DNA from: a virus
Reading direction: 5' to 3' (one strand)
Length of the DNA stretch: 64,000 nt
Virus record (IMG/VR): IMGVR_UViG_3300042562_002450
Location: 96,001-160,000 of that record
The notes under the pieces were generated by a model that did no database searches, had not been told where the DNA came from, and worked only from the letters and a program-made list of their open reading frames with translations. Shown here piece by piece: positions 32,396-51,721 of the stretch. The position numbers and the translations under genes are program-made. The number at the start of each line of letters is the position of its first letter. Position 1 is the stretch's first letter.

Positions 32396-32396
32396 A

Positions 32397-32840: not shown

Positions 32841-32849
32841 ACTAACCTT

Positions 32850-33398
32850 TTAACCTAGTGCGCCAACTAAGGTACTTATTAATGCAATATCTTTAACTAT
32901 AGGGCCAAGCATGGCTCCAACTGGTAGTGACCATTGGAATGTTGGAATTGGAGTAACCATGGTAGATGCAAAGCCTGTCATCAGTAGTGGGTTTAATGTC
33001 ATGATCCCTCCTATTCTTATCTCATGAGGTTGAGCTGAAAAGCTTGTTGGTCCTTTAACAATATTTCCAAATTCCCTTGTAGAGAAAAACCCATTAGTTT
33101 TTGATCCTCTAAGGCTAGCCTGACTGTCGTTAACTTCAATTATTGGAGCATCTGGAGCAGCAAGTGTTTTTAATACTTTTGAATTACTTTTATCGAAAGT
33201 TTTGCTCTGATCAATTTCTCCATCTAAATGCATTGGCTGGTGAAATGGCTCTCCTGTTTCGAGACTTACAATCTTAAGTCTGTGTGTACTTGGATTGTAA
33301 TCTTGGATCTTAACTAATGTTCCAGATAATTCTGACTTTTTTATATCAGAGGTTTTACTAACTAATTCATATTCAGAAAATGAAGATCCTTGTTTCAA
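32850..33398 (-). CDS. Putative baseplate spike-related protein
   Basis: 182 aa, TTG start; beta-rich; between hub and gp25-like genes. Confidence 0.4.
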   Translation of the reverse strand: MKQGSSFSEYELVSKTSDIKKSELSGTLVKIQDYNPSTHRLKIVSLETGEPFHQPMHLDGEIDQSKTFDKSNSKVLKTLAAPDAPIIEVNDSQASLRGSKTNGFFSTREFGNIVKGPTSFSAQPHEIRIGGIMTLNPLLMTGFASTMVTPIPTFQWSLPVGAMLGPIVKDIALISTLVGALG

Positions 33399-33622
33399 AA
33401 TAATCCTAATGACTTATTTGCCGTAATTGATGTTACTGGTCCATCTATTTTTGTTTCAGTCTCATATTGACTTATATCTAAGTCTTTCTTACCTAAAAGA
33501 TGAATGGTTCCATGCTGTGTAATATATCCTATCTCTCCAACTAAATCACCTAAAAAAGGAGATAGGAGATAGTGCCAATCTGGAGTAAAGAGCATCTCCG
33601 CTACATTATTCTTAGTTGCCAT
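33395..33622 (-). CDS. Small hypothetical baseplate-region protein
   Basis: 75 aa; coupled on both sides (TAATG and TTGA overlaps). Confidence 0.5.
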   Translation of the reverse strand: MATKNNVAEMLFTPDWHYLLSPFLGDLVGEIGYITQHGTIHLLGKKDLDISQYETETKIDGPVTSITANKSLGLF

Positions 33623-36600
33623 TATTTTTTTCCTTGCGCTGCTTTAAATTTTTCTTCTAATTTTTCCCATCTTTTAGGGTCATTATCCTTAAGTCCACCA
33701 CTATACGGAATCGCATAATAATTATCAACCAGAAATCTACCAAGATCAACACCATTAACTTCTACTGATCTGAATTTTACTTCTGCAACTTTTCTTCCGT
33801 AATTATCACTCTCATATCTTACTATGCTAATTTTAGTTCCTGGAGTGAGTAGCATTGAGACAGCTTCAGTTGCACGTTTCCCCATTCTATATTCTGCAGT
33901 ATTCTTATCTGCTTTTGATTCTCCAGTATCTATTCCTGAGATACGTATCGTTTCATTTCTACCAGTTATTATTGCTGGACTTGTAATTCTTCCACCTTCT
34001 GTCTCAATTGTATCTCCATCTAAAACTCTCGTAACAACTTCTTCTTCTGTATTTCCACCAACAACTGGCTCTCTAAGCCATGGATCTAAAAAGGTAGAAA
34101 CTAAGAATGCTGTAGCCCCAAGCTTATCTGCTCCTCTTGCTGCTTGCAACTCTAAATGCTCAAGTGGAGTATTTTCTTTAAATCCATTAAGAGCAGCCAT
34201 CCAAGGCTTACCATCTTTAGTTAATGGGAAGATAGAAATGGGTTGTCTATATGCCATGAAATTGATGAATCCTTCAACAGCACTATCTATTGCAGCCTCA
34301 ACAAGGAAGCCACCTGCAATTCCTCCCAGAGTACCAAGACCAAGTTTTCCTAAAACAAGACCGCCAGTTAATCCAGCCTTAAAAGTAGTCTTAGCTGCAG
34401 TCACTCCCGTTCTTATGCTATTAGTATTTTTTATAGCATTAAAAGCACTTTTCCCAGCATTGCTTGCTAGCTTTGCTTGTTGAATCGCAAGTTCAAAATT
34501 CTTAGTATTAATTGGTATAGATCCAAGATACTCTCCACCTATGTCATAGATACCTTTGATACCTTTGACTACTCCTTTGTCTATCCCTCTAGATAAAACA
34601 TATGGAGCAATAACTTTATTGCCAACTACAGAACCACCAAGATGTGATCCAAGTGTAGCACTATCTATAATAGCTTTATTGCTTAAAAGAAAGCTTTCCC
34701 CTTCTGTTTCAACTTTTTCTTTTGGTACGTCACCTAACATTAATGGATCAGGCTCTAAGTCCTGGAATCCTTGATTTTCTAGTTGTTCAATTGACCTGTC
34801 TAGATCCTCATCAATGTCAGCTCTTCTTGTTGCATCAGAAGGTAAAAACTTTTCCATATTTGAATAGAAAAGATCAGCCTCTGCCCCTAACCAGTATCTT
34901 GCTGCCTTTAAAATTGATTTTATCTGATAAGCACCAGTACTAGTATCTGGAATAGCTATAAACTTAGGAGTTATACTTGTGATCCATCCTGATGTTGGCG
35001 AAATAGTATGCATGACTCTTTGGACTCCAATTGGTCCACTTATCTTATTATGCTTGTCATCAAGGATAACAATATCATGAGGCTTAATTCCTTTTCTTCC
35101 TAGTATCGTTAACTTACCTTTATATATATTTTCAAGTTCTTTACACAGAACTGCTTTTGCATATTTCTCTGGAAGATGCAATCCAGGATGATCTTCATGT
35201 GCATTGTGAAATGTAAATGTTTTATTATTTATAAGATTACTATGCAGATCATCATCTGCTTTCATCCTATCTGTTATTTTGTAACTACTAAACCATCTGC
35301 TTCCAGTAAATTCTGTTTGTCCACTTGTACCTGGATGGTGAACCTGAACAGAGTTAGCTACCCCAATAGATGAGGCTTCTATTCTATTGGAAACAATGTC
35401 GTGATGAGAGGTAACAATATGATAAGCTCTGAAGTTCTTTTGCATTCCAAGTATTGCTATTGACTGAGCATCTGTCTTTGTTATTGTAGAGTTTTGCAAT
35501 GCTCTTTTTTCAAGTCTCTCCTTTGAGTCCACTCTTGAAGTTGGTGTTGTAGAATCACCTAATGTTTTAATATTTTCTGCATCTGAAAACTCTGCTTTTG
35601 CATCATATATTTCTCTAAGAGTTGCTCTTTCTCCTAATCCTAATTCGTTTGAAGCTTTGATCTTTAAAGCTTTCTCTAAAGCTGTTGCAGCTCCACGACA
35701 AAAATAAACACCATCTGGCTCTCCGAAATAGATAGTACTTCTATTGTCAAAAGGAACAACAGCTGTAACATATCCTGGATGTCTTAATGTCATCTCTTGT
35801 AAAACATCCCATACTGTCTGTTGAAAAATTGTGAACTGAGCAGGATTAGTCTCTTGCTTAGCAGCATCCCATACTTCACCTAGTGTACCTATGCCAAAAG
35901 CTGCTACTGCTGCTACTAATCCAAGTGGACCAAATAATCCAGCAACACCAACTAGCGGTATTAAGATACCACCAAAAAGAGAAACAGCGGAACCAGTTCT
36001 TAAGAGTGCTCCCTCGATAAATGTTCCCCATCCTTTAACTGGTCTATGCATTACTGGTGCATAGATATTATCTAATGCATTCCTTCCACCTAACAATAGT
36101 GGTAGATCTAGACCAAAGTTTCCTTTGATCTTATAATTTGTATTTCCAAAACTTTTAATCTCATCAGCTTGTGCGATAACTTTAGCTAATAAGTCATTAG
36201 TACCTGAATTCCATGAATATGTCTTTTTTTCATCTCCAACTCCAATAGTATTCTGAATAAGCTCATGACCATCTCCCATGCAATATATTTCAATAATATC
36301 ACCATTAGATATAGCTGCTATCCTTCCATTGAATTCTAATTCGAGAGCCCCTATGTCGTTTGAGTTGCCTAAAAAGGCTCTAATTTTTATTCCTTCTTTT
36401 AATCCAATATCTTCTAAATTAGTATTGTAAGTATCATGCATGGTGGTCTGCCCACTCATTGCATCACTAATAAGTCTGCCTGCTACATCCAATATATCTT
36501 CTCCATCCTTCCTGTGAAACGATGGATCCTTAGATTGCTTTGTCATTAAGGATTTATGAGTACCCAAGACTCTTATAATCATGACATCTGCTGCTTCGTA

Positions 36601-39600
36601 TTCATCTTTTATTATTCGAATATCAACGATTGAAGAGAGATCATATATATCAAGCAGGTCTCTTTGATTCTTAGCCATTGCCTCTAAACTTTTAAGATCC
36701 TCAGAAGAATAAGCTTGTGAATGAGACAGTTTTTCACTAAAGAGTTGAACTTGAAAAGCTGGATAAACCTGATCAAGTGAGTGAACAGGGGGTGTAGTCT
36801 CTGCAATTGCTTGCCTTACAGCTTGAAAGCGATAGTCCTCACTCATTAGATTATGTACTCTTGCAGATGAATCTAGATTTTCAGAATCAGTTCCAGCGTA
36901 ATTTGCAGCTGGAGCATAATCAGTTTCTCCAGCTTTAAGATCTTTAGAAAGAGTAGATCCCCGATAAGGATTTAAAGTTTCTTGTGTCTTTGCAAGGAAT
37001 GTTGGTTCAATCAATTTTTGTTTTATAGCTTTAGTGGTACTTCCATAAACACCTGCCATACTATTTATTATTGTATTTCTGTAACCATTAACTCTATAAG
37101 AGTTATTGTCTAGATAGTATGCAGGAGAGACTATCTTATCTGGGAGTAGCATATCTGGATATAGATCTTTTAGGTTTTTAGGTCTAACATCTGTATAGTT
37201 AGTGAAGAGATCTACGTAGTCAGCTACCCACTCTTCTCCTTTTTCAAGTCCTTTTATGAAATCTGAGTAGAGTGACAGGACAAAGTTATTAACCCAAGTA
37301 ACATTAAAGTGTTCACTAAATTGATCAGTAATGAAATTTTCAATCTCTTTTTTTATTGCTCTTTTTTCTTCAGTTTCTTTTATCGACAATGGGCCATAAA
37401 GAGCTCTTGTTACTTTTTTTAATTCTTTAGATTCTTTTTGAGTTAATGGGTTCTCTGTGTGTACTCTTTTAATTTTTTCGCTAAAGAAAAACTTTGACTT
37501 ATAAGCAGCATCAATTGGCTGACTATTAACCTCCGCCATCTCGTCATCACTCATTCCTCGTCGACCCATTGGCGATAACTCTGTAGATGAGAATGTTGCA
37601 TCCCCATTAAGCAGGTCGTATAAGTCTTTGTCTCCTGCCAATAATTGATTTAATGCATTTGCAAGTTTTTTTCCTGCTATTGATTCTGCACTCCACTTAT
37701 GTCTATCTAAAATGGTATCATTAACAAAACCCTGACGACCAAAAGTACAACCAGAATTAATATAAATTTTTTCTATGATTTTCTTTTGAATTTTAAAAGC
37801 ATCAGAAGATCCAGTGTCTCCTTCGTACTTAATAGGGAAACTAGCTTTGGCAAGTCGTGTCTCTTTGAAATCAATCTGAATGCTTGATGCGAAAGGTAGA
37901 TTAGGAATAGTTGAAGACTTAGTGCTTGAAACAATAACAGGAAGATATTGATCAATCTTAAATTCCTTCGGTTCACCATTCTTTTCAATATATTTATAAC
38001 TTTTCTTATCTACATTGTGTGATCTATATTTTAAAAGCTTAGCTAGTGGATGTGAGATTAGAAGATGATTCTCTTTTGAGAATTTAGAATAGGTAATCCT
38101 ATCTGCAGAAACTTTTTTAAAAATTGAAGAAAGAGTCGCAAGAGAATTCGAAGTTCCTACTGCTGTCTTATTCTGTTCTCCAGCATACTCTGCTGCTGCA
38201 AAAACTATTGCTCTAAGCTCTGATGTGTTCCCACCTAAGAACTGAACTGTTGGCATGGAATATAAGTCCATCTCGATATAGGTTGGATTGGTATTAAATG
38301 AGAAGCTAACATTCTGAAGAATTAAAGCTCCAGATGTTCCTCTTGGATTGAAATCAGCAAATGGTATTTCAAATCTTCTCCATCTATAAAAAATACCAGA
38401 AATAGGTTTCCCTAGTCTGCCTTCTTCTTCTTCTTCTGCAAGATACCATCCTTCTTCTTTTTTCTTATTAATAAAAAGAGCTGCATCAAAGCTTATACCT
38501 TTAGCATCCGTATTTAGTTGTGATCCTTTTGTATTTCTTTGAACAACAATAGTTGTTTCTTTTTCAAAAGAACCATACTCTTTATACATGAGTACCATTT
38601 TATCTTTTTCATCAAGAAGCCCAGGGTCATTAATTAAATTTCCGCCTACAGTTGTTGTTTCATTTTCGTAAAATTTCTTAAAAAGGCTAGATGGTGCTCT
38701 TTGTTTTCTTGGCTTACCATCAATCATCTCTATGAATTTAACTTCCTCAACATAAGGTGCATGGTTAAACCATGTTAGCTGAAGAGTACATCTAATAATT
38801 CCTGGGTGATCTTCTTCTGAGTATCCATTAATATTTTCAACAATTACAGCAATATTTGAGTTATCACTAGGATTATTAAAAAGTTCTTTTCTTATTTTTT
38901 CATTATCAATAATAGCAATTGGACTTTTCTTTGACTGGATTATCATTCGACTTAGTTTGTCATAACCATGAAAGCTTGTATCAATAGGAAAGTTTACGAT
39001 CATTCTTATTCGTTTTTTTCCAGACTGTGCCATTACTGGAGTTTCTTCTCTCATTAACATTATTGAATTGGCATATTCATCCATGTCTATAGAAATTGAT
39101 TCTGGCGGAATATCGAAAACAATATCATTGAATCTAAAATATCCCGAAGCAATTCGATTATTAATATCTATTGACTCACCATCATCTATGTCTCTAACTG
39201 GAGAGGCTTGAGCTAATGCTATGGCATCAGCTTCAGCTTGATTTGGATCTAAAACTAAGCCTTCCATTTGATTTGTTAACGCAGGTAGCCCTGTAGCTTT
39301 AGCTAGATTGTTAATTCTTTTCTTCCAACCATTAGAGAATACCTTATTTTCGGGTCTTCTTTTGACTATCTCTTGATAATCATTCATCTCTTTTTCTAAG
39401 AACTCAATCTGTACTTTTTTTGATTCATCTGAGGAGAGTTGATTTATTTTCTCAACCATCTCAGGAGTTACAGTTCCATTCTTTGGTAATCCGAGAATCT
39501 GCTTAAGATGACCTACTGGCCTGCTTCCTTTATTAAAAGTCTGGTCAAAAAGGGGAAGACTAACTTTAAGATTGTTAATCTCATCACCTCTTATCTTGTC

Positions 39601-39801: not shown

Positions 39802-39833
39802 TACTTACCTGTTGCTTTTACTGGAAATATCTT

Positions 39834-39862
39834 ATTATAAAGTTGAGAAGATAGAACAGCAA
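39834..39862 (-). promoter_or_regulatory. Sigma70-like promoter for hub/baseplate operon
   Basis: TTGCTG, 17 nt, TATAAT, then AGGTA ribosome binding site and ATG 39801. Confidence 0.45.
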
Positions 39863-40104
39863 CCTTATTTATTCATTCTGAATTTTTTATTGACTTAGAT
39901 TCTTTATAGAAAAAAAGAAAGGGTATAGCTTGAAAGTGAACTCTAGTTATGTTTTCTAGCGAAAACAAAAGAAGAAAGAAAGAATCAAAGTGAAATACTT
40001 AAAAAGAGTTTATCATGGAATTCTCAGGATAGGAAGGTTAATACATTGGATTATTTTAAAGAAAATATGATATAGTTAATAGATAGAACTAGTTAAGGAG
40101 TAAA

Positions 40105-40587
40105 ATGTATTATCTTACTTTTATATTTAAAGATCCAGATACACTTATAATTAAGTGTGTTGGTGTTAAATATAAGAAAACAGAGTTTGAAGACTCCGAT
40201 ATTGCTAAGTTGCTGAAACTAGGCACTTCTAATATTGAGACTAAGTTTTGGCTTAAGGAACTAAGAAAAGAAAATAAGATACCAGTTCTTGAGATACTAT
40301 ATAAAGGTCTAAGTTCAGCTGAAGCTTGCTTTGCAAAACAACAAATACTAATACAATCTGTAGAAGAAAAGATTGACCTAATTGGTCAACAACCTTTAAC
40401 TAAGAAGTATACAAAAAAGATGAGAAGCAATAATAGTATGCGCTCTGCTATTGTTGATCAGTTTGGAAATAACTACTCAGGCATACTAGAAGCAGCAGAA
40501 AGATTACTACTAGCTCCATCTAATATTTCAAAAGTTTTACATGGTAAGCTTGAACATATTGGTGGATATATCTTTAGCTTTCTTTAA
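40105..40587 (+). CDS. Degenerate GIY-YIG-like protein with C-terminal NUMOD1-type helix-turn-helix
   Basis: YYLTFIFKDPDTLIIKCVG and WLKELRKENKIPVLEIL match GIY-YIG scaffold; YSGILEAAERLLLAPSNISKVLHGKLEHIGGYIFSF is NUMOD1-like; AAGGAG ribosome binding site. Confidence 0.65.
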   Translation: MYYLTFIFKDPDTLIIKCVGVKYKKTEFEDSDIAKLLKLGTSNIETKFWLKELRKENKIPVLEILYKGLSSAEACFAKQQILIQSVEEKIDLIGQQPLTKKYTKKMRSNNSMRSAIVDQFGNNYSGILEAAERLLLAPSNISKVLHGKLEHIGGYIFSFL

Positions 40588-43500
40588 TATCCTCTGCCTA
40601 TCTTGTCTTGCATATCGTGATAATCAAAGTTTCTAGTGTCATCTTTTATTCTCATACTAGATGTATTGTGCTCAGCAGCGTACTTATTTATTTGGAAACC
40701 AGTTCTTGCATTCCCTGATATTGATGGCTTCATGTGTCTTGGACTTTTTATATTTGGAGCACCAGGAGGACTAAAACCGACTCCATTACTTTTGTTATGT
40801 CCAGATTGCATATCTCCAAACTCAACATCAGCTTCAATGCTTGATCTTGCCCCAAATACTGTTCCAAGCAATCCTAAGATTGCTGCTGGAGCAAGTGCGT
40901 ACTTAGCTAAGTTTCCACCAAAGCCTTTACTCATTGCCTTCACATCATCAGTATTATCCATTATTGTTTTAACAAATTCTGATTGTTTTACCTTACTGCC
41001 TTCTAGTATTCTATTTAATTCCCTTGCTTGATCAGCTGCATTCATTCCACCTTTATATTCTCCAGCAAGGTTGCTTACTTCCATTAGGTCTGTTACTGCC
41101 TCATCTGAAGTAAGGTAAAGGAAATCTTTCTTACTGACACCACCTTCTCTGGAAAAGATAGCTTCAATTTCTTCTGAAGTCTCTCCTGCTCTGATCTTGT
41201 CTCCAAGATTTACGGTTGATTTCTCATTAAGACTTAAAAAGAGTTCATCTGAAAAATCTCTAAAAGTTTTTATTTTCTCAGTTATATGCTTAGATCCAAA
41301 CTCTCCATCTCCAGTTATGGAATCTAGAACTTTTTTTGCTCTTCCACTTATCAGATCTTCAGTTGATTGTGCTTTTCCTTTGATAATGTTTTCAGCAAAA
41401 AGATGCAAGGTATTCTCTACTCTAGCGAACTTTTTAATATCACCATTATTAAGCATGGCATTCATCTGGTGTAACGGACTGGCACTATTAGAAGCTATTC
41501 CAATAAAGCCTTTTTCTAAATCTTTAGCAAGAAAGGTTGAGAGTCTCATTTCCGCTAAGTCATTAGTAAGAACAGATGCTGCCTCTCGACCTTTTAGGGT
41601 ATACCTTGTTTTGATTTCTTGAGCTTTCCTTAATTCAATTGAGTCTTCTGTATTTCCATATGCTCTTTCTTTAACTTCATTTGCTGCAGCTTCTGTCTTT
41701 GCAGCGATAAGAGACATCGTATCTCCATCATAATCTCCATAAACCATTCTAAGGATATTGTTTTTTTTGCCTGAAGCAATAGCCATCCTTTCATCAGAAA
41801 GGGCTTCTAAGCCTTCTATCGAATCAGAAGGTACAACATTCACGGTAATTGCTGAAAGCCCCTCTACTGGCTCTCTAACAGCTACAGCCCATGTATCTGA
41901 GAATCTATTAGCACCTGTCTTCTTGTGAAAGGCATCGTAAGCATCTTCTCCATACATCTCTATGAATTTATTCTTATTAACAGCAACAACAAATGGTTGA
42001 GCGTTTTTAGTCTTAAACTTAGCAGCTAAACTATCAGCATATTCTTCAAGAGCATTTGAACCTGATGAAACTTGAGCATTCATACTGCTAGTTACTTTTC
42101 CCTTAAATATTTTGCTTCTTAAATCATCACGCATCTGAGAGATTGCACTGTCATAGTTAGTAACCAATGTAGTTAATCTTTCTTTATTTCTTTCTAGTTT
42201 TGGTTTTCCCATTTCACTTATTATATCTTTGGTTATCGTATCTAGTTCTGTATATTTTTTATACTTACCGCCATGTCCAATCTTTTCTCCAATATGACCT
42301 TTCATTGAAGGATCTGTGAAAATCCCTATCTTTCGATATCCTAAGATTTCATCTTCAAGGTCAACATAAGCAACACCATCAATAGCCTCATTACTAAGGT
42401 ATGCTGCCCTTTGCTTAAGAACACTATTAGATCCTAGCTTTTCTCCTTCAACATCTAAAGGAAAGACATTAGAATTAAAGTCTCCTCCTTGTAGTTTTTC
42501 TGGATTAATAATGCCAGCTTTAGTTGGATTAGTTATGTCTTTCATCATTCGATGTGATGCTTCAAAACTATTAAGTCTTGCATTGGCTCCTGGGTCTAAT
42601 CTTCTTGACATGACATCTTCAGCAAAGGCATCAAGTCCCATAACGCTATAGAGTCCTATGTGTCTTTCAGAGAAGAATCCTAGACCACCAGCTCCTGTAT
42701 CTATTGCAGCATTACCGAATGCAACATCTTTATTTTTAAAAAAACCTACATTGGATCTTAGTCCACTAATTTCTTCAAATTCATCTTTACCACCAATGAT
42801 AGTTTCTATTCTTTTAAAATAGTTCATTTTTTCAGTATCATCTATTCTTTCAAAATTAGAAAGAAGGTCTTCCCCAGCTTCATATATTGCTGCCCATTTA
42901 TTATTTTCAGCATCAGACATCTTAGATGCCCCATAGGTTATTCTCTGTCTAGCCTCATGTCTAATGGAATGAAACATACTAGATAAATTACGTGGATCTA
43001 ATCCGCTTTTCATTGCACTTGAGTTTGCTATTACTTCTACGTTTTTTATTCTTCTAATGACTTCAGGATCTAATGGCTTATTACCATTTAATTCTTGATA
43101 GTATCTCAATATATACTTCTCTAATCCATCGATACTTCTTTTAACTGTAGCTTTAACCTCACCTGCAATGTCATGAATCTTATCTCCTTGATCAAGCAAT
43201 CTTTGCTTCCTAAAGCCATAAGTTAATCCTTCATTCTCAGAGATGTGAATATCATCAAGATACAATCCTCTATGTTCTTTTTCTAGTTGAACTTTTCTTT
43301 GTCCATCTCTTGAGATTCCTAGTAAGTTTCTATTTCTAAACTGTTCTTCTCTGGTTATTATTTCTTTTTCTATTTTCTCAATTTCAGAAGATAATGATCC
43401 TTGCCCCTTAAGTCTTTCAGCATCAGCAAAATATATCTGCTCACCTACTGGACCTGAAATTACTCCAGCTGAATTTGAGTTAACTTTAAGATATGCTTGT

Positions 43501-44993
43501 CTTTTGTTTTTTGAATCCTCTATAGCTTTTTTTAAATATTCATGATAGTCATCAACATTAATTTTTGTTAGTTTTGCTCTAACCTCAGGGCTAAATGCTT
43601 GGAAGCCCCCACCTTGTTTTAGCTTTGCTGCAAAATCTTTTTCAGACAAGCCAGCGGCATCACTCATCCTCCCCATTAAAAAGCGGGAAAGATCTGTCTC
43701 TTTTCCTGCATGGATCTGGAGTGATCGAGTATTATCTACAAGAGTTCCAGCAAGCTGCCTATTTGTTAAAAGTTCTTCTTTTCCTAAGTGACCGAATGAC
43801 TTACCTTCCTCAGCTAAGTATTCATTTATTCTTGTTATCCCTTTTTCATCCATAAAAAGAACTTCTTGATTATGATTAAAAGAGTGGTTACCTTTTGAGT
43901 CTATATGGGATGTATTAGTTCTTAATCCTTGCTTGGAATTACTGGCTTCTTTTGCGAAAGGCTTTTGCTCTATAACATTGCCTTTTAGGTAAATGATACC
44001 TTTATTTACATCTGAAGCATTTCCTGCATTCCTTCCATCTAAGGCTTCATTTTTAAGTATTTGTTTTTTATCAAATTCACTCATTGGTTGAAATGGATTA
44101 GCCTTGGCACTATGTCTATGTAAAGCAATAGCTTCTGGATTCATTTTTGATGTATTCATAAACCCAGTAGCTTTGTCATTATATTGCATTAATTCCATAA
44201 ACCTATTGTTATACTCGTCTAAGTTCATTTCTCCACTTATGAATTTACTATAGTTTTCTCTTATTCCTCTGACATATGCGACATCAGCTCCTACTATTTC
44301 TCCAATACCAGTTCCTGTTGAGTTACTATTAAATACTCCTCTAATCACAGACTGATTCTGACCAGCAGAACCCATTGTTACCATGCCTTCTTTGTTAACA
44401 GTATGAACTTTTATTTTCCCAGCTTTAGAAGGAATACCAATAGAGGTTATCTGACCAGTGCTATCAAAGTTAACTGATATCGCACTTGATCTTCCTCTCT
44501 TTCTTCCTGACGCTAACCCTTCTACTGAGTTGTCTGCTTGATCTATTGTAACTTGAAGAGCTTTTAGCTCATCCATTAGTGTTGCACTTTGGTTTCTATA
44601 TCCACCATCTAAGAAATCAGCTATTCCACCGCCAGCTTTTGAGCCACCTGACATTATGATCTCATCATTAATATTATTTATTGCTGCAAAGTTTCTTCTT
44701 TTAGATACAGCTTTTTCAGTATCTGTATATGTATATAAATCTGTATTCTTTAATAAAGAATCTATAGGCTTTTGATCCTCGACAGCTTGAGCTACATCTT
44801 TGTTCATTAGACTACTTAAGTTCTTAATGAATTTATTATTTTCTTTTCTTAGCTTGCCCCTACCTGTCTTGAAGTGACCATGCTTGATAGACTTGTCTAA
44901 AGCTACAGCAGCACCACCAAATAAGGCGGCTCTTCCTGCAATTGAAAAAAAATCATAATTAACATCAAATCTATCTTCTGTCGTTGTGATCAT
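40584..44993 (-). CDS. Putative single-chain two-barrel RNA polymerase (virion RNAP candidate), 1469 aa
   Basis: Ordered motifs: RLLDQGDKIHDIAGEVKAT, VEVIANSSAMKSG, FFSERH (beta-like); GKVTSSMNAQV, AVREP, YGDYDGDTMSL (beta'-like). True start ATG 44993 overlaps TGA of the tape measure. Confidence 0.8.
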   Translation of the reverse strand: MITTTEDRFDVNYDFFSIAGRAALFGGAAVALDKSIKHGHFKTGRGKLRKENNKFIKNLSSLMNKDVAQAVEDQKPIDSLLKNTDLYTYTDTEKAVSKRRNFAAINNINDEIIMSGGSKAGGGIADFLDGGYRNQSATLMDELKALQVTIDQADNSVEGLASGRKRGRSSAISVNFDSTGQITSIGIPSKAGKIKVHTVNKEGMVTMGSAGQNQSVIRGVFNSNSTGTGIGEIVGADVAYVRGIRENYSKFISGEMNLDEYNNRFMELMQYNDKATGFMNTSKMNPEAIALHRHSAKANPFQPMSEFDKKQILKNEALDGRNAGNASDVNKGIIYLKGNVIEQKPFAKEASNSKQGLRTNTSHIDSKGNHSFNHNQEVLFMDEKGITRINEYLAEEGKSFGHLGKEELLTNRQLAGTLVDNTRSLQIHAGKETDLSRFLMGRMSDAAGLSEKDFAAKLKQGGGFQAFSPEVRAKLTKINVDDYHEYLKKAIEDSKNKRQAYLKVNSNSAGVISGPVGEQIYFADAERLKGQGSLSSEIEKIEKEIITREEQFRNRNLLGISRDGQRKVQLEKEHRGLYLDDIHISENEGLTYGFRKQRLLDQGDKIHDIAGEVKATVKRSIDGLEKYILRYYQELNGNKPLDPEVIRRIKNVEVIANSSAMKSGLDPRNLSSMFHSIRHEARQRITYGASKMSDAENNKWAAIYEAGEDLLSNFERIDDTEKMNYFKRIETIIGGKDEFEEISGLRSNVGFFKNKDVAFGNAAIDTGAGGLGFFSERHIGLYSVMGLDAFAEDVMSRRLDPGANARLNSFEASHRMMKDITNPTKAGIINPEKLQGGDFNSNVFPLDVEGEKLGSNSVLKQRAAYLSNEAIDGVAYVDLEDEILGYRKIGIFTDPSMKGHIGEKIGHGGKYKKYTELDTITKDIISEMGKPKLERNKERLTTLVTNYDSAISQMRDDLRSKIFKGKVTSSMNAQVSSGSNALEEYADSLAAKFKTKNAQPFVVAVNKNKFIEMYGEDAYDAFHKKTGANRFSDTWAVAVREPVEGLSAITVNVVPSDSIEGLEALSDERMAIASGKKNNILRMVYGDYDGDTMSLIAAKTEAAANEVKERAYGNTEDSIELRKAQEIKTRYTLKGREAASVLTNDLAEMRLSTFLAKDLEKGFIGIASNSASPLHQMNAMLNNGDIKKFARVENTLHLFAENIIKGKAQSTEDLISGRAKKVLDSITGDGEFGSKHITEKIKTFRDFSDELFLSLNEKSTVNLGDKIRAGETSEEIEAIFSREGGVSKKDFLYLTSDEAVTDLMEVSNLAGEYKGGMNAADQARELNRILEGSKVKQSEFVKTIMDNTDDVKAMSKGFGGNLAKYALAPAAILGLLGTVFGARSSIEADVEFGDMQSGHNKSNGVGFSPPGAPNIKSPRHMKPSISGNARTGFQINKYAAEHNTSSMRIKDDTRNFDYHDMQDKIGRGY

Positions 44994-47900
44994 ACAACAT
45001 AACCCCATTCTCTTAAGGCATCATTTCGTTCACTTCTTCTATCTAAAGTTATATCTAGATCAGGACTATTATCTAACCCTGGACGCATTACCACAAGGGC
45101 ATTTTCAACACCACTAGCACTAAGGCTAGAATAGTGCGAAGCGTAGTCTGAGCTGGAAGAAGCAGGAATATTAACAGTAGCTGCTGCAACTTGAGATAGA
45201 TCTCCTTCTCTTGCTGATCTTCTTCCTGTATATGCATGAGTATCTCTTGCCGCATTTTCTAAGTATCTATTCTGAGCACTATCTACACTTACAGCAGGAC
45301 TCCATCCAACCCAGTCATTTCCAGGCATTCTTGATTGATAGTCTTGCAACTCAGCTGAACGTCTTGCTTGAATTGCTCTCTGTCTTGCTTCTACATCTTT
45401 CATTACTTTCTTTCTTTGCTGATTAGACATTGACTGGCTTTTCATTGCTTCTTGTCTTATTTGATTATCCATTTGTGCTTGGTAAGCATCACGATGTCTT
45501 GGATTAACTCTCCCAATCATTTTTACTTGTGTGGCTCTATCAGTCTTAATAAAATACTTATATGAAGCTCTTTCATTTTTTGGTAATGATCTCACAACAT
45601 CAGACGGATGTGAATATAAATCCTTACCTGTATATGTCTTCTGTGCCATTATTGTATATCTATCTGCAGACTTAAGATCGCCTTTTGATTGTGCATCTCT
45701 TGCTAAGTTTGTGAATTTCATATAATCAGTTTTATCAAAGTAATCTGCAATTTCTGCTTGATCACTGCTCATGTCAATTCCACCAAGCCCCATGCTATTA
45801 AGGGTCATACTAACAGTTGGCATTATAAAATCGTCAATAGGATTCGCCCAGTTTCTGTAATCCTTGGAGTATCTTTGCTCTTCCAAGACATCTTCAATAT
45901 CTGGTGGTGCTAAGAATTTATGTGCAGGAGAAACTGGTAATAATGTTTCTAGTGGATTTGATCTTGCAAGGTCAGTTAAGACTGCAGAGTATCTACCTAA
46001 AAAACTATCATAGGTACTTGGGTCTCTAGCATTAAGTTCAGACTTTTTCTTTTCATCAACTTGTCTTTGTACATCATCAAAGATATCTTGTTCATACTGA
46101 GTTAGTTCTCTGTTCTGTAATTTACCTTTAATGTTTCGATGTTCCATAGAGCCATAAGCGACATCAGATAAAATCTTATATTTAAAGATATCAGGATAAT
46201 CATTTGGATCCATCCCTTTTAGTTCTTCATATTTTTGAGCGAAGCCCTCACCAGGCAATCTTGAATAGCCATCTTTAACTTTAAGAAATGGATCACCATG
46301 TTGAAAATCTTGATAAAAATCAGAACCAGGCATCCAGCTAGGCATCATATTCTTTAATGGATTAAGATTAATCGTAGCATCCATCTGAGCTTTCTGGAAA
46401 CCATCTTGATTCTGGAATACCCTTCGTAATGCTTCTGTTGTTAAGATACCACCACCTAACTGGAGATCATAAAAGTCTCTAGTTATTGAATCAATATCTT
46501 TTGCTGATCTTACTTCATTTGGATCTGAAAATATCTCACTAGAACCTGTTATGGTTTCCTTTATTGCTTTAACTGCAAAGCCTCTTAGTCCCATAAATTC
46601 AAGAGCAGAGTTCCATTGCTTTCTAGCAAGCGCATCAATATCATATTCTGTGTTATCTAAAAATCCTTCTGGAAGTTCAGACTCGTGCATAGTAGCAACT
46701 GGCTTTATAATCCTTCCAAGAGATGCCTCATAGGCAGGACCAAAGATACCAAGCATACTTCCATCTGGACCAGTTAATGGATATGGTTGATCAAAGTATC
46801 TATTCTTTTCCAACCAAAATGGATCATATATGGATCTTCCTAGCTTTGTGAATGGTGAAATATTCCCACCATAAAGCTCTTCATTTTTAGAATCATCTAT
46901 TAATTTGGCGTACCAATTAGGTCTGTAGTAATCAACCTCAGATCCTTCCCATGGCGTAAAGGATGATTCCCAGAATCTACCTTTCTTAACTGCTACTTCT
47001 TTTTCTCCACTATATTCTAAACCTAATTCAGAAGCAGATTTATCTGCTCCAAATCCGGCTAAAGTAAAAGGTAGGGCAAGTGCAAAGCCAATAGCTCCAC
47101 CAGTCCTTATAGCTTTACCTGTTTTGGTTACATTCTTTTTAAATATTTTACCTAAGATCCCATCGAATGATTCTGTCTTCTCTGCATTCTTTAGGAATTG
47201 GCCATACTTGTCTGTTGCAGAAGACTCTAATGCTAGTCCTTGTACGGAACCCCAAAGCCCTCCAGCCATACCTCCAGCAAGAGTTAATCCTATAGTTGAC
47301 TGCCAGCCTTCTGATCCTGGTGCTTTGGATTCTATATAATCTCTGAAACCAGTTAGTCCAGTTATGTCTGAAAGTCTTGCATATGTCTCATGTGCTTTCC
47401 GTACACTATAAGCAGCTCCACCAAGTAGTCCAGCATCTCCAATTGGAGTTCCATCGGGAGCTATCTTTTCTGCACCCCAATTTAAAGTTCCTAGTCCAAA
47501 GTAAGCTAAAGCTCCAACTCCTGCAAGCTTCCCTCCATGAGACTTAAGCATACCTTGCCAGTTAGTCGCAAGCTCATTTCCATCTAGTCCAGTATTAAAA
47601 AATTTAGCGATAAATCCATCAGGACCCAATGTCTTTTTCATCCATGGAGTAAAATAATCATCTAACTCTGGTATAACGTCCGTCAATGCTTCAAAGGGAT
47701 CACTCATTAACTTCATTGGCTTACTTACAGTTTCATGAATAAAAGCACTAGCAAAATGATCAACACCATTAGTAATAAGGAAATCAAACTTAGACATCTG
47801 CTGAACATTCTTCAATCCAAGTTGGGAGAGATGCGACCTTGCAATTGAAGCCATGCTCTTTGATTGATTATTATCTGTTACAGTTTTCATTAAAGAGAAT

Positions 47901-50473
47901 GATCCTTTCATCTCTTCGACTACATTCCCTCTGTGAAGCATTAGCTTCCCATTTTCAAAAACAACTTTATGTATCCCCTCTTCTCTAAACTTTCTATTGA
48001 AAGCTTTGTCCATATATTTGGCATATGATTCGCCTTGTTGTGTTTTAAAATCAACTTCAAAACGGGCAGTATCATACATACCATAGCTGGCAATGTCTCC
48101 TAGCCCAAAAGCTTTTGGAAAGCCACCAAGAGAAGCCTCTGCTCGTCTTATTGTAGAAACAAGTAAGTCCTGAGCAGTTGAGTGAGTTCTGTTTAAAAGT
48201 TTTTCATTATCCACTAATGGACTAAGCGCACCTAGGTATTTAACATCATTAAGTCTTCTCTTAGAAGCTTGATGCTTAAATACTGAGTAAGCTCCTATAG
48301 TCCCTAATCCTGTCAACCCTATCTGAGTCCATGACATTGGATCTTCATTAGGATCTTCTGGCTTATGAAAGTCCTGTGTTCTAAAACCAGAACCAAATGA
48401 TGTATTGTATTTCCTTTGATTTTGAGTCGGGGATCCATGCTGGAGTCCCTCTATTGTATTTGCCTCATCATCACTACCGGAAAATTTAAATAGATTAGTC
48501 ATTGCACTTCCGAGCATGACTGCACCGAAAAGCATTGTTCCCATTTTTGCTGTTTTCAATGCTTTAGTCTGAGCATCTGTTATGTCTGGAATCGCTTTAT
48601 TGCTACGAAGAAAAGTCATTCCCTCATCTGAGTTTTTATATTTTAAAAGCTCTTCATCGTATAGTTTTTGTGAATTAGCAATATCATCTGTAAAAATTAG
48701 ATTTTCTTTATTATATTTAGGATTTATTTTCCCTAAGCTTTCTCCTGCTTCAATGTTACCCTTTATCATCTTAGCCATTGACTCTCGATACAAAACAGGT
48801 TCTTCAGCCTGTCTCATCTTCAGCCAACTATCTGTTGCCTTGCTTAACTCTCCCCCTCCTTCAACTTCCTTCATTGCATTAACAAGCATTTTGGAAAGTC
48901 TTCCCTGCTGAAAGTTATCTAAGTTACCATCATGCCATTCTTTCTCACCTAAGAATGATCTAGCTAAGAAATTAATATTAGTTCCAACGCCAAAACGACT
49001 AGTCTTAGCAATAAGATTTTTCTGCTGAGCCATTGCATTCAATGTTTTAGATAATTCCTGTATCTCAATAATACTACCCTTAGAATCAAGAGCCTCATTT
49101 AATATTTGAGTTGCTCTTATCTTTTGGTTAGAAACCAATCTATTAAAACCTTCTTCTTCTGTTATCTCTCCTCTTTTAACTTTACCTAATATGCTTTTTC
49201 TTTGCATACTTTGTTCTGACCTTAACTGCATATATTCTTGTGAGTAACGAACAGGACTTCGACCGTCAAACAGTTCTTCAAAATGATCTATCTCAAAGTT
49301 TGCATTCATTGCAAGAATATTCTTTTTATTTTTCTTTGCATCTTCTAAGAAACCATGAACATATCCTTGTACTGATCTTCTTTTTGCAACTTCGGCAATA
49401 ACGTTTCCTGCGAAACCTTCTTGAGTATTTGAAAGTTGTTTTGAATAATCATTTACTTTTTGGATTTTAGTAAAATCAAAATTCTTTTCCTTATGTAGCT
49501 TTCCTATTGCAGTTTGATCATAAAGGAATGGATGATTTTCTAATTTGAAATTATTAGGTTGCTGCATAAAGATAGAGTGATAATCATTCCCTCTTTTTAG
49601 CGAGACTTGAAACATTGAATGCTTACTTGACTTTAATGACTTTGTTTCGATATCAACACCATATTGATCATCAAAAGCATTATCAATATCCCCACTGGTA
49701 AGTTTTAGGATATCTGAAAAATCACCTAGTCGAAAAGGAGATCCAAATGCAGTTGCCATCTTTCTCATCTTTCCAAACCAACCATGACCCATACCTTCTA
49801 TTATTGGCCTAGCTTCTCTTCTCATGTTCCTAATGAAAGGATTATTGCTTTTGATTCCAGCATGCACAATAGATTGAGATTTAATCTCTTGAAGTCTAGA
49901 ATAGTCACCTGCGAAATCTGCATGATTTAAGGCAGAAAATTTTTGATCTGAGTTGTTAAAAATAGGTAGTGCTTTTTTCTCAATAAAAGACTGAACTCTC
50001 TTTACTTTACTTAGATCATTCTGGTATTTATCAAAATCATACTTTTGATGAATAGTCTTTTGCATGTAAGGATTATCTTGATTAATATAATGAAGATATC
50101 CTTTCTTTATCTTTGAGTTGTGCATTAAAGCATTGAGCTCTGATTGGTCTACGGACTTAGCTTTATTCATTATTATATTTTCAAAATCAGCAGCAGATAC
50201 AGCTTTAACCTTTCCTATGCCGTCTTTTGAAACTTCATCAATAAAACCAAATTCTCCACCATTCGTATTCTTTATCTTTACATCATTTTTTATAATATCC
50301 TTTTCAGATATCCTTTTCTTTTTTACTATTTCTTTCAATGTATCATTTGATCTTTTTTGCAGACGTTGAATAGTATCAGGGGTATTTTTTTGAATAAAAG
50401 ACTTTAATAGATCCTCATGGGTCTTTCCAAAGTCAGAAGCCTTAACTGGGAGATGTTTTCTTTTATTATCCAT
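44990..50473 (-). CDS. Tape-measure-like protein with embedded DEDDh-like exonuclease domain
   Basis: 1827 aa directly after chaperone pair; several Gly/Ala-rich hydrophobic segments; VDIET, AMNANFE and WHDGNLD motifs. Confidence 0.7.
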   Translation of the reverse strand: MDNKRKHLPVKASDFGKTHEDLLKSFIQKNTPDTIQRLQKRSNDTLKEIVKKKRISEKDIIKNDVKIKNTNGGEFGFIDEVSKDGIGKVKAVSAADFENIIMNKAKSVDQSELNALMHNSKIKKGYLHYINQDNPYMQKTIHQKYDFDKYQNDLSKVKRVQSFIEKKALPIFNNSDQKFSALNHADFAGDYSRLQEIKSQSIVHAGIKSNNPFIRNMRREARPIIEGMGHGWFGKMRKMATAFGSPFRLGDFSDILKLTSGDIDNAFDDQYGVDIETKSLKSSKHSMFQVSLKRGNDYHSIFMQQPNNFKLENHPFLYDQTAIGKLHKEKNFDFTKIQKVNDYSKQLSNTQEGFAGNVIAEVAKRRSVQGYVHGFLEDAKKNKKNILAMNANFEIDHFEELFDGRSPVRYSQEYMQLRSEQSMQRKSILGKVKRGEITEEEGFNRLVSNQKIRATQILNEALDSKGSIIEIQELSKTLNAMAQQKNLIAKTSRFGVGTNINFLARSFLGEKEWHDGNLDNFQQGRLSKMLVNAMKEVEGGGELSKATDSWLKMRQAEEPVLYRESMAKMIKGNIEAGESLGKINPKYNKENLIFTDDIANSQKLYDEELLKYKNSDEGMTFLRSNKAIPDITDAQTKALKTAKMGTMLFGAVMLGSAMTNLFKFSGSDDEANTIEGLQHGSPTQNQRKYNTSFGSGFRTQDFHKPEDPNEDPMSWTQIGLTGLGTIGAYSVFKHQASKRRLNDVKYLGALSPLVDNEKLLNRTHSTAQDLLVSTIRRAEASLGGFPKAFGLGDIASYGMYDTARFEVDFKTQQGESYAKYMDKAFNRKFREEGIHKVVFENGKLMLHRGNVVEEMKGSFSLMKTVTDNNQSKSMASIARSHLSQLGLKNVQQMSKFDFLITNGVDHFASAFIHETVSKPMKLMSDPFEALTDVIPELDDYFTPWMKKTLGPDGFIAKFFNTGLDGNELATNWQGMLKSHGGKLAGVGALAYFGLGTLNWGAEKIAPDGTPIGDAGLLGGAAYSVRKAHETYARLSDITGLTGFRDYIESKAPGSEGWQSTIGLTLAGGMAGGLWGSVQGLALESSATDKYGQFLKNAEKTESFDGILGKIFKKNVTKTGKAIRTGGAIGFALALPFTLAGFGADKSASELGLEYSGEKEVAVKKGRFWESSFTPWEGSEVDYYRPNWYAKLIDDSKNEELYGGNISPFTKLGRSIYDPFWLEKNRYFDQPYPLTGPDGSMLGIFGPAYEASLGRIIKPVATMHESELPEGFLDNTEYDIDALARKQWNSALEFMGLRGFAVKAIKETITGSSEIFSDPNEVRSAKDIDSITRDFYDLQLGGGILTTEALRRVFQNQDGFQKAQMDATINLNPLKNMMPSWMPGSDFYQDFQHGDPFLKVKDGYSRLPGEGFAQKYEELKGMDPNDYPDIFKYKILSDVAYGSMEHRNIKGKLQNRELTQYEQDIFDDVQRQVDEKKKSELNARDPSTYDSFLGRYSAVLTDLARSNPLETLLPVSPAHKFLAPPDIEDVLEEQRYSKDYRNWANPIDDFIMPTVSMTLNSMGLGGIDMSSDQAEIADYFDKTDYMKFTNLARDAQSKGDLKSADRYTIMAQKTYTGKDLYSHPSDVVRSLPKNERASYKYFIKTDRATQVKMIGRVNPRHRDAYQAQMDNQIRQEAMKSQSMSNQQRKKVMKDVEARQRAIQARRSAELQDYQSRMPGNDWVGWSPAVSVDSAQNRYLENAARDTHAYTGRRSAREGDLSQVAAATVNIPASSSSDYASHYSSLSASGVENALVVMRPGLDNSPDLDITLDRRSERNDALREWGYVV

Positions 50474-50537
50474 TGCCTCATTCTATCATTTATAAATAAT
50501 AGCATCATCTAGTAAAAATACTAAACCGAGCTACAAA

Positions 50538-51122
50538 TCATATAAGTGTTTGATTTTCTTTACTAAAGTCAATGTACTCTTGGCCATCTGCTCCTTTCTT
50601 CATTGCTGGAGCTCTAGCTTTATCAACCTTATTAGCTTTGGGATTTGAAACAAAATCAAAGGTAGTTCCAAGTATCTTTTCTGCTTGAACTAGTCTTCTC
50701 ATCTGTGTCTTCCATTCCATATCCTCAACTTCCTCTGGGGTGTATGCAGGGAATGCCTGACAGATTTTAACTATAATTTCATCTCTGAGATTCATTGAGC
50801 TATCTCGTACTGAACTCAATTCTTCTTGGATTTCTTTTTCTGATGTTGGATTAGAGAATCCTAGGATTAAACGAACTATAGTAGATACAACACCAGCATT
50901 AAGAGTATTAATTGTTCCTCTTAATGTATGCTCTACTACACATTCTTCCCATATGTTATCTTCAACAATAGGGGCTAGAGCTGGATATGCTTGGCATATT
51001 CTTTTGGCAGTTTCACATTTAGAATAACTTAATGGCTTAAATAAAACTGAACCTTTACCTGTATTAAACAGATAAAGGTTCTTATACTTTCCATATAATT
51101 CAAATGCATTGCCATTATTCAT
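50538..51122 (-). CDS. Tail assembly chaperone 2
   Basis: 194 aa; N-half paralogous to upstream chaperone (LYLF..VLFKPL..TLNAGVV..LIL..SN); just before tape measure. Confidence 0.7.
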   Translation of the reverse strand: MNNGNAFELYGKYKNLYLFNTGKGSVLFKPLSYSKCETAKRICQAYPALAPIVEDNIWEECVVEHTLRGTINTLNAGVVSTIVRLILGFSNPTSEKEIQEELSSVRDSSMNLRDEIIVKICQAFPAYTPEEVEDMEWKTQMRRLVQAEKILGTTFDFVSNPKANKVDKARAPAMKKGADGQEYIDFSKENQTLI

Positions 51123-51125
51123 TTT

Positions 51126-51689: not shown

Positions 51690-51721
51690 GTCATCTCCAA
51701 TTCTTTTATTTGATGACTAAA

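Follow-up and report, generated by a model that had tools for sequence, protein, structure and literature searches.

A putative two-barrel polymerase encoded among the giant tail genes of an uncultured freshwater phage

Can a contractile tail bring enzymes into the host cell along with the DNA? This question is raised by three giant genes in a 64,000-nucleotide stretch of phage DNA (the window), which corresponds to bases 96001–160000 of a 198,626-bp virus record (IMG/VR IMGVR_UViG_3300042562_002450; G+C 34%). The region of interest is a single minus-strand structural block, in which the three giants (genes 1, 2 and 3, in 5' to 3' order; Table 1) sit between sheath, tube and chaperonin genes and baseplate genes. 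An earlier inspection of the letters alone (the sequence-only reading) had interpreted them as a cassette threaded through the tail and injected into the host, consisting of an exonuclease-bearing tape measure, an RNA polymerase (RNAP) and a muramidase–hub–nuclease.

Our analysis partly supports that interpretation. The open reading frames (ORFs), domain matches and catalytic residues confirm that the three giant tail-core genes carry enzymes. In particular, gene 2 appears to encode a divergent single-chain two-barrel polymerase-like enzyme: a fold and motifs of this type were found, and we consider it likely to be active because the catalytic residues are conserved.

The polymerase-like core of gene 2

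The ORF of gene 2 spans 40584–45008, and its real start is at 44993. Two numberings are used below, P0004 being equivalent to P0002 from residue 6 (P0004 + 5 = P0002). Two-barrel RNAPs are recognized by a signature composed of an R-x-P element, three Asp and two basic residues, where R-x-P (R446/P448 in Rpb1, R962/P964 in QDE-1) lies ~33–45 residues upstream of the Asp triad (PMC2919709). The gene 2 protein carries REP at 1045–1047 and GDYDGD at 1091–1096 (P0002 numbering), with an R-to-D spacing of 47 as compared to 45 in QDE-1 (PMC2919709). It therefore shows both the R-x-P of two-barrel RNAPs and the DxDxD of their β'-type double-psi β-barrel (DPBB).

These residues stand out in an otherwise very variable family. 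In an alignment of 33 relatives, extending down to 17% identity, just 18 positions were invariant, among them D1087, D1089, D1091, P1042, K605 and K614 (P0004 numbering), with R1040 conserved in at least 90% of the sequences. Among 5.8 billion proteins the family formed 13 clusters (90% identity), and the domain profile retrieved 48 clusters among 1.84 billion representatives, whose full-length members measured ~1350–1600 aa and had the core equally placed.

An AF2 model of residues 450–1474 pointed in the same direction. With Foldseek, the top 50 PDB matches were all RNAP β'/largest-subunit chains, the best being the non-virion RNAP (nvRNAP) of AR9 (9.4e-4). With VIA, the top 13 matches were all RNAP largest subunits, QDE-1 or RDR2 (Z 8.4–10.5, 220–360 residues aligned). 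The best was Pol I A190 (Z 10.5, 320 aligned), QDE-1 scored Z 9.5 (217 aligned, root mean square deviation (rmsd) 4.3), and the top 12 included Pol II, archaeal RpoA', RDR2, vaccinia virus, Pol III, bacterial β', AR9 and African swine fever virus. Isolated DPBB domains came next in the list, with Z 7–8 and rmsd 2.3.

A β-type barrel might be located farther upstream, where the invariant K610 and K619, nine residues apart, precede the triad by ~480 residues. The model has a pLDDT of 34–57 there and no structural match, and no invariant fourth Asp was identified in this candidate barrel in the 33-sequence alignment.

Gene 2 had no sequence match in Pfam, PHROG or PDB (single-sequence and profile-to-PDB searches), nor any tblastn match in 50,697 phage records. 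The profile search of the 1.84 billion representatives provided no bridge to the YonO, RNA-dependent RNA polymerase (RdRP), crAss-like or P23-45 families, and the language-model atlas gave sub-threshold leads only (0.83–0.85), including one viral RdRP-family cluster (0.83). With its 48 clusters outside any database family, the gene 2 family would thus extend the two-barrel polymerase superfamily by a clade of deep divergence.

The coupling of the putative polymerase gene to gene 1, also part of the sequence-only reading, could be read directly: the two genes overlap by a 4-nt ATGA (...GTT GTA TGA over ATG ATC ACA), and this overlap is kept in 6/6 related contigs, hence in 7/7 genomes with the window.

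The other end of gene 2 leads to a known virion protein. A 117-column hidden Markov model (HMM) of the C-terminus was run on the complete set of 220 ORFs from the loci of 0305phi8-36 and ME3, and the sole significant match was the last 70 residues of 0305phi8-36 gp146 (E 1.9e-6, 22.2 bits), the next ORF having E 1.8. Because the slot is the same and the C-terminal tails are homologous, gene 2 is, as judged from these matches, the positional and C-terminal counterpart of gp146, a virion protein and putative tape measure (PMC2147016). Alignment of the gene 2 family with gp146 by hhalign revealed no core similarity. The C-terminal tails of genes 1 and 2 are also alike (D-R-R ... W-G-Y-V-V, 44990–45060, and D-x-R ... 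R-G-Y, 40587–40650), and gp145 and gp146 of 0305phi8-36 share similar short C-terminal tails; in the phage tail, those of genes 1 and 2 may have equivalent docking sites.

Similar motifs were present in the same slot of cultured phages. ME3_36 (L002:15173–19984), recorded as a 'hypothetical protein' between ME3_35 and the hub, aligns with the gene 2 family at REP...GGDHDQD and at E-x3-K-x-K (hhalign probability 76%, E 2.4e-5; HMM 1.6e-9 in a 12-sequence set). WH1 gp095 (L012:19265–26812) and KLEB27-3 gp034 (L013:20319–27623), two ~2500-aa proteins in the tape-measure slot, contain N-R-Y-P-T ... A-D-(H/Y)-D-G-D near residue 1950–2000, a motif unannotated in their records. The active-site signature of bacterial β' is NRAPT...NADFDGD, and the phage motif is strikingly like it, a near-canonical signature of the β' type. 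In hhalign comparisons of these two proteins with the gene 2 family, the motifs were collinear but the match was weak (E 0.01–0.03). Overall, the sequences suggest that the 0305phi8-36 supergroup may have an old and widespread polymerase module within its 'tape-measure' gene. Our literature search found no papers on KLEB27-3 or WH1, and none in which the tail module of the 0305phi8-36 lineage was said to encode a polymerase.

In the rest of the genome, whose record is an estimated 89% complete, there was no match to sigma-70, T7-type or Rpb1/Rpb2 families. A motif scan detected one other large DxDGD protein (1478–1485 aa; genome positions 193736–198193 (+), outside the window), encoded at the end of a right-hand plus-strand arm of ~40 small genes and featuring a Cys4 cluster. 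In its family (15 members), R1090-x-P1092 and D1147-x-D1149-G-D1151 are invariant, and its members share contigs with genes 1 and 2. Such motifs make it a candidate non-virion polymerase, possibly representing a second divergent clade. By hhalign, it could be aligned with the gene 2 family only weakly, without significance and around the motifs (E 0.012, probability 3.6%), leaving paralogy of the two proteins unsupported by sequence. If the second protein is truly a polymerase, this phage would have a counterpart to the virion/non-virion RNAP pair of P23-45.

The flanking giants and the tail module

Gene 1, for which 37 homologues were found, is related to the virion protein gp145. By tblastn, its residues 1125–1658 matched 0305phi8-36 ORF145 and ME3_35, both annotated as 'virion structural protein', and the family HMM recognized ME3_35 (1e-110), gp145 (1e-81), MTATph1 CDS0026 (3e-78) and WH1 gp096 (2e-74), with E-values from 1e-110 to 6e-31 over the core homologues of cultured phages. 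The conserved core is the C-terminal 700–1000 residues, common to these four proteins and to KLEB27-3 gp031+gp033.

The N-terminal third of gene 1 contains nuclease folds. In an AF2 model of residues 1–660 (23-sequence alignment, mean pLDDT 77), the stretch 250–570 has pLDDT values mostly of 85–96 and includes a DEDDh-type exonuclease fold (residues 262–542), with VIA matches of Z 10–12 over ~155–185 residues to Pol III epsilon, TREX1, ExoI, RNase T, DinG-N and Cap18. Pol III epsilon (1j53_A) scored Z 11.6 (155/174 aligned, rmsd 3.0), a TREX1 homologue 11.3, DinG-N 11.3 and Cap18 11.2. D274-x-E276, N390-x2-F393-E394 and H514-x4-D519 are invariant in all aligned gene 1 homologues (18–23). The sole departure from the canonical motifs is in ExoII (N390-A-N-F393-E394), where an invariant Glu stands in place of Asp. 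Because the catalytic residues are invariant, we take this domain to be a probably active 3'-5' exonuclease. The DEDDh part was not found in the gp145 homologues of cultured phages when compared through the gene 1 family HMM.

A second nuclease fold, absent from the sequence-only account, occupies residues 1–170. In VIA it matched LHK-Exo (3syy_A, Z 13.5, 160/194 aligned, rmsd 3.4), the Cas4 protein SSO0001 (Z 13.1) and λ exonuclease (Z 12.4). This λ-exonuclease-like domain is missing from three homologues (P0036, P0037 and P0043) and is an optional module of the gene 1 family, although most often present in this clade. An internal segment of gp145 (residues 1185–1281; L001:10787–16579) matches it (HMM domain E 3e-5), and the module thus appears to have moved within the family.

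Elsewhere in gene 1 there are several hydrophobic stretches rich in glycine, and conservation is high in a block near residue 1170. For the C-terminal 1200 residues there was no match in Pfam, PHROGs or PDB, with single sequences or profiles, and no language-model atlas lead; no fold could be assigned. The homologue P0046 has a 448-aa intein after about window residue 1177, inside the invariant ...TPWEG... block, and in KLEB27-3 the insertion of a small gene (L013:17328–17963) nearby has left the gp145-type gene in two parts, gp031 and gp033. The unassigned core is thus a target of mobile elements, a pattern typical of essential, conserved sites.

The exonuclease fold that had been ascribed to gene 1 is therefore present, with invariant residues, but its designation as a tape measure is a label rather than an observation and is not established. 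Gene 1 does follow chaperonin-like genes and does have glycine-rich hydrophobic segments, as expected of a tape measure. However, neither gene 1 nor gene 2 had a tape-measure match in Pfam or PHROG, and in 0305phi8-36 the role was given to the slot of gene 2, not of gene 1 (PMC2147016).

Gene 3 shows the muramidase and nuclease ends, and a probable hub core, of the architecture originally read from it. Both enzymatic ends exceed the Pfam cut-offs, the GH108 muramidase with 69 bits (cut-off 21.2; E-G-G catalytic motif as EEGG at residues 14–17; profile-to-PDB 2.2e-20, PDB relatives 7dnp and 2ikb) and the SNase with 27.6 bits (cut-off 21; 6.2e-8 for the profile against PDB thermonuclease). All the SNase residues D1930, R1953, D1958, T1959, E1961 and R2003 are present; we take D1930/D1958/T1959 to correspond to the Ca ligands D21/D40/T41 of SNase, and R1953/E1961/R2003 to its catalytic R35/E43/R87. 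Hydrophobic segments occur from residue ~1265 and at ~1815–1840. The hub core matches the ME3 'baseplate hub protein' ME3_37 (tblastn 3e-19) and 0305phi8-36 ORF147, and the gene sits ahead of the wedge genes, a position fitting a hub. A direct match to gp27 or to a solved hub was not obtained with the profile against PDB. The putative hub identity of gene 3 comes from its homology to gp147 and ME3_37, and the link between gp147 and gp27 comes from PMC2147016.

The order of these genes is strongly conserved. It is gene-for-gene identical in the 6/6 metagenomic contigs carrying a gene 2 homologue, and it parallels gp143–gp151 of the Bacillus phage 0305phi8-36 and ME3_33–41 of the Acinetobacter phage ME3. 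The three-giant arrangement is found also in ME3 (ME3_35/36/37), Moorella phage MTATph1 and Bacillus phages WH1 and KLEB27-3, so that the check on synteny suggested by the sequence-only reading gave a positive outcome. In 0305phi8-36, sheath gp139, tube gp140, tube paralogue gp141, gp142 and the chaperonins gp143/144 are followed by the giants gp145 (1930 aa), gp146 (2537 aa, 'hypothetical tape measure') and gp147 (1903 aa, 'baseplate hub'), with V-like and J-like genes after gp147; according to the record annotation, gp145, gp146 and gp147 were each detected in virions by mass spectrometry.

The three giants do lie in order, but they are not strictly consecutive as had been thought, because a 160-aa opposite-strand gene with a NUMOD-like domain separates genes 2 and 3. 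It shares 4 nt with the end of gene 2, and ~300 bp of non-coding DNA (39802–40104) lie between it and the hub gene. Its occurrence at the equivalent place in 6/6 related contigs makes a fixed regulator the likelier identity, as compared to a roaming homing endonuclease. At the other end, the boundary originally drawn for the cassette (50488) has to be corrected, as it falls 15 nt past the start codon of gene 1.

The surrounding genes identify the kind of phage (Table 1). The sheath has a 697-aa orthologue at the equivalent place in 6/6 related contigs. Upstream of gene 1, a 228-aa protein resembles the N-terminal part of gp142 (blastp 7e-16), a 187-aa tail-chaperonin-like protein (51126–51689) matches the 'putative tail chaperonin' ME3_33 (9e-6), the C-terminus of gp143 (3e-5) and the N-terminus of gp144 (3e-4), and a 194-aa protein in the gp144/ME3_34 position had no relative by blastp in the small local database used for the tail-gene comparisons. 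On the baseplate side are a 410-aa wedge protein similar to P2 gpJ and gp151 (31163–32395; PHROG phrog_6 1.3e-29, blastp to gp151 3e-13) and proteins of 182 and 147 aa similar to ME3_39 (1e-11) and ME3_40 (1e-7). Given the sheath, tube and wedge genes and the synteny with 0305phi8-36, the phage has a contractile tail, and a crAss-like podovirus, or crAss-type head cargo, is ruled out. The locus is the tail-interior and hub module of a contractile-tailed phage of the 0305phi8-36 lineage. Near-identical DNA was found in five further metagenome runs from five lake/freshwater studies, each with at least half of the sampled words and all of them besides the run that may be the source; the contractile-tailed phage is thus real, uncultured and recurrent in fresh water. 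Among the public runs containing this DNA no RNA run was listed, which has no bearing on expression.

Both tube proteins (52408–54219) are matched by phrog_9206, labelled 'major head protein', which looks like a propagated mis-annotation; the tube genes of MTATph1 are likewise named 'major head protein' in their record. Directly after the tube gene (53578–53603, minus strand) is a strong hairpin resembling an intrinsic terminator (11 pairs, 6 GC, T-run), which fits sheath and tube being expressed more highly than the genes downstream.

Table 1. Features of the tail module, with positions in the window
Feature	Positions	Strand	Basis
Tail sheath, 697 aa	54232..56325	-	PHROG phrog_16991, 6.7e-74
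Tail tube, 193 aa	53638-54219	-	blastp to 0305phi8-36 gp140 (tail tube), 2e-20
Tube paralogue, 382 aa	52408-53556	-	blastp to 0305phi8-36 gp141 (tube paralogue), 1e-18
Three small genes upstream of gene 1 (228, 187, 194 aa)	50538..52408	-	blastp
Gene 1 (P0001), 1827 aa, gp145-type giant virion-protein homologue	44990-50473	-	homologues, HMM
PD-(D/E)XK lambda-exonuclease/Cas4/RecE-like fold, gene 1 residues 1-170	49964..50473	-	VIA
DEDDh-type 3'-5' exonuclease domain (predicted), gene 1 residues 262-542	48848..49690	-	fold match, invariant motifs
Gene 2, 1469 aa, single-chain two-barrel-RNAP-like, ATGA-coupled to gene 1	40584-44993	-	fold, motifs
Candidate beta-type barrel of gene 2, G-D-K ... 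G-x-x-K	43119..43331	-	invariant K610, K619 (P0002 numbering)
Beta'-type active-site signature of gene 2, R1045-E-P1047 ... G-D1092-Y-D1094-G-D1096	41721..41876	-	P0002 numbering, 44 residues between
Gene 2 C-terminal hydrophobic helix (residues 1365-1392) and conserved tail ...RGY	40587..40916	-	hydropathy peak, HMM
Opposite-strand gene, 160 aa, I-HmuI NUMOD-like DNA-binding domain	40105-40587	+	Pfam PF22083, 7.4e-9, above cut-off
Gene 3 (P0003), 2059 aa	33622-39801	-	Pfam, profile-to-PDB, tblastn
GH108 muramidase, gene 3 residues 1-190	39232-39801	-	PF05838, 5.2e-19
gp147/ME3_37-type hub core, gene 3 residues ~1053-1618	34948-36645	-	tblastn
SNase, gene 3 residues ~1920-2057	33631-34044	-	PF00565, 4.2e-6
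Downstream baseplate genes (75, 182, 147, 410 aa)	31163..33622	-	PHROG, blastp

Delivery through the tail and rival explanations

The explanation that best accounts for the module as a whole, and to which we give an even chance, is that the tail loads and delivers a polymerase and nucleases, the hub opens the wall and early transcription ensues. Genes 1 and 2 would be made together through their ATGA coupling, and the chaperonin-like proteins would help to load the two products, in an extended form, into the tail tube, where the C-terminal tails would dock. Upon sheath contraction, the hub muramidase would open the wall, and the glycine-rich hydrophobic segments of the three proteins might line a channel through the envelope. 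The polymerase would then refold at the inner face and transcribe the first DNA to enter, and the first transcripts may include the second DxDGD gene at the right genome end. The substrate of the exonuclease and the SNase would be nucleic acid at the site of entry, whether that of the host (DNA/RNA) or the incoming ends. We infer delivery into the host and early transcription by gene 2, and likewise the location in the tail lumen, the refolding after ejection, the nuclease substrates and the identity of the length ruler.

Several observations weigh against this explanation. Gene 2 has no sequence-level link to any described RNAP family (PF05183, PF00623, PF00562, PDB RNAPs), its model is of moderate quality (mean pLDDT 62.5, pTM 0.46) with the candidate second barrel in a low-confidence stretch, and the protein, in this phage and in its recognizable homologues, is known from genes alone. 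gp146 has no DxDxD motif, which means that homology of the tail does not bring the enzyme along. Furthermore, a folded polymerase core of ~90 kDa cannot pass the tail tube without unfolding. No conserved early-promoter motif was found in the genome: the search gave no exact repeated 11–14-mers, the 8-mers enriched upstream of 110 genes were ribosome-binding site and AT-rich words only, and sigma-70 and terminator scans were uninformative on this point. With the record an estimated 89% complete, an undetected polymerase or sigma factor is possible.

The accessory enzymes pose difficulties of their own. In the λ-exonuclease-like domain, the window protein has D79 ... K88-x-K90, with E-x3-L replacing QxxxY, and thus departs from the canonical motif; the acid of (D/E)-x-K is K, Q or N in this protein and its close relatives, and only three distant members of the gene 1 family (P0039–41) have D-x-K and QxxxY in canonical form. 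The activity is doubtful, or else the catalytic site has migrated, E80 being present where D88 is lost. The hub ends also vary, GH108 being recorded on 3/6 relatives and SNase on 2/6. The two domains are variable accessories, which fits the view of Hardies et al. that the scaffold of the hub is conserved and its end domains can be exchanged (PMC2147016).

Could the polymerase remain in the cell in which it is made? Gene 2 might encode a non-virion enzyme, placed in a late structural operon yet unpackaged, that transcribes late or middle genes like YonO of SPbeta, leaving early genes to the second DxDGD protein or to the host enzyme. Single-chain two-barrel RNAPs such as YonO do act in the cell, and gene position alone is weak evidence for a protein known from its gene; moreover, in 0305phi8-36 only a separate YonO-like gene has been credited, and it lies outside the tail module (PMC7824862). 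Nevertheless, we regard this as unlikely, considering that gene 2 ends in a hydrophobic helix and a tail homologous to that of the virion protein gp146, that the ATGA coupling to a gp145-type gene holds in 7/7 genomes, and that the chaperonin–hub slot encodes virion proteins in 0305phi8-36. In addition, the second DxDGD gene, at the end of the small-gene arm, would better suit a non-virion enzyme. Another explanation accepts gene 2 as a tape-measure or tail-lumen protein, but has the core pull the genome, prime replication or serve a structural purpose instead of gene expression. The equivalence to the putative tape measure gp146, both in position and at the C-terminus, agrees with this, as does the occurrence of the WH1/KLEB27-3 motif inside ~2500-aa proteins, since tape measures are typically of this size. 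In T7 and N4, it is established that transcription drives the entry of the genome. On the other hand, the invariant catalytic residues speak against a purely structural relic, a 1469-aa protein with a globular core leaves little length for a ruler, and the pulling of DNA by transcription would still require an active RNAP and so overlaps with tail delivery of a polymerase. This explanation therefore seems to us distinctly improbable.

What the nucleases do is a separate matter. Rather than being anti-host weapons, they might trim or protect the entering DNA ends, destroy nucleotide or oligonucleotide signals of host defence, or have little role, as passengers accessory to a hyperplastic structural scaffold; we lean against this set of alternatives, albeit not strongly. 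The structural matches of the DEDDh domain include Cap18, REXO2/Orn and diDNases, which act on short oligonucleotides, and both the hub end domains, which vary between close relatives, and the optional λ-exonuclease-like domain behave as passengers might; Hardies et al. noted an SNase on the hub of the prophage-like relative BtI1 and left it unexplained (PMC2147016). The DEDDh domain, however, is present in every examined gene 1 homologue of the clade with its catalytic residues invariant, and for this reason it does not look like a dispensable passenger.

Returning to tail delivery of the polymerase, a broader version can be formulated, which we put forward as tentative and consider rather doubtful: the tape-measure slot of the 0305phi8-36 supergroup of jumbo myoviruses, to which the cultured phages ME3, WH1 and KLEB27-3 belong, would anciently encode an unrecognized two-barrel RNAP delivered through the contractile tail. 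In the lake clade, the entering DNA would first be transcribed by this enzyme, which would switch on the second, equally divergent polymerase in a cascade independent of host RNAP, and an active exonuclease would be brought in with it by the neighbouring tail-lumen protein. That a tail delivers enzymes as well as DNA, as suggested here, has so far been documented for one siphovirus (P23-45). If it is true also in contractile-tailed jumbo phages, the tail lumen would be a general route of enzyme delivery, beyond its functions as a ruler and DNA conduit, and a large, ancient phage lineage would need re-annotation, as its giant 'structural' genes are currently blank. ME3, WH1 and KLEB27-3 are cultured phages in which the idea is directly testable. 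There would then be a mechanical question, namely how a polymerase core of ~90 kDa travels through a contractile tail tube and refolds afterwards.

Comparison with known systems

Virion-delivered polymerases that start host-independent early transcription are known from crAss-like phi14:2 (gp66), from N4 (vRNAP) and from phiKZ/AR9 (vRNAP), and gp66 of phi14:2 is likewise a single-chain two-barrel enzyme inside a giant protein. These enzymes are, however, podovirus head/muzzle cargo or inner-body proteins and are not encoded between chaperonins and hub. The N4 enzyme is T7-like, and the phiKZ type is made of 4–5 Pfam-recognizable subunits, none of which was found in this genome. The sequence-only reading had drawn an analogy with crAss-like ejection proteins, except that the parts would be those of a contractile tail; the contractile-tail genes are indeed there, but the nearest analogue is a different one (see below).

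Like the QDE-1/YonO type (PF05183; Ruprich-Robert and Thuriaux 2010, PMC2919709), gene 2 is one polypeptide with R-x-P ~45 residues before D-aromatic-D-G-D. Unlike that type, it lacks a PF05183 match, is located in a tail module and has a membrane/tail anchor. The hub invites comparison with T4 gp27–gp5, which similarly forms a cell-puncturing device with a peptidoglycan hydrolase that opens the wall during contraction. Gene 3, by contrast, is one 2059-aa chain with an N-terminal GH108 domain (not a T4 lysozyme), hydrophobic segments and a C-terminal nuclease.

The module of 0305phi8-36 (Thomas et al. 2007; Hardies et al. 2007, PMC2147016) has the same order of sheath, tube, paralogue, chaperonins, two giants, hyperplastic gp27-like hub and gpJ-like wedge, with homologies between gene 1 and gp145, between the hubs (gp147) and between the tails of gene 2 and gp146. 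It differs in that gp145 lacks the DEDDh domain and gp146 the DxDxD motif, and in that the ends of gp147 are a transglycosylase and a peptidase in place of GH108 and SNase.

The closest analogue is the tape-measure-fused virion RNAP of the Thermus siphovirus P23-45. Its gp96 is a 5002-aa tape measure whose N-terminal two-barrel RNAP is unrecognizable by sequence and transcribes pre-early genes, including that of a second RNAP; its site of action, in the authors' proposal, is an envelope pore that the tape measure itself forms (Chaban et al. 2024, PMC10770324). Like gp96, gene 2 combines a DxDGD two-barrel polymerase-like core, in a tail-lumen gene slot, with membrane segments and with no recognition as an RNAP by sequence; sequence and profile searches of PDB, which includes the gp96 structure, revealed no similarity between the two. 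For gp96, activity and packaging are proven, while those of gene 2 are putative; the second RNAP of P23-45 is a very divergent two-barrel enzyme, while the second DxDGD protein is a candidate only. The architectures differ as well. In P23-45 the RNAP is N-terminal and fused to the ruler, whereas gene 2, in a phage with a contractile tail, encodes a separate 1469-aa protein with a central core and a short gp146-type tail, preceded by a nuclease-bearing giant and followed by a hub with muramidase and nuclease. In both phages, delivery through the tail and transcription of pre-early genes are the proposed outcome.

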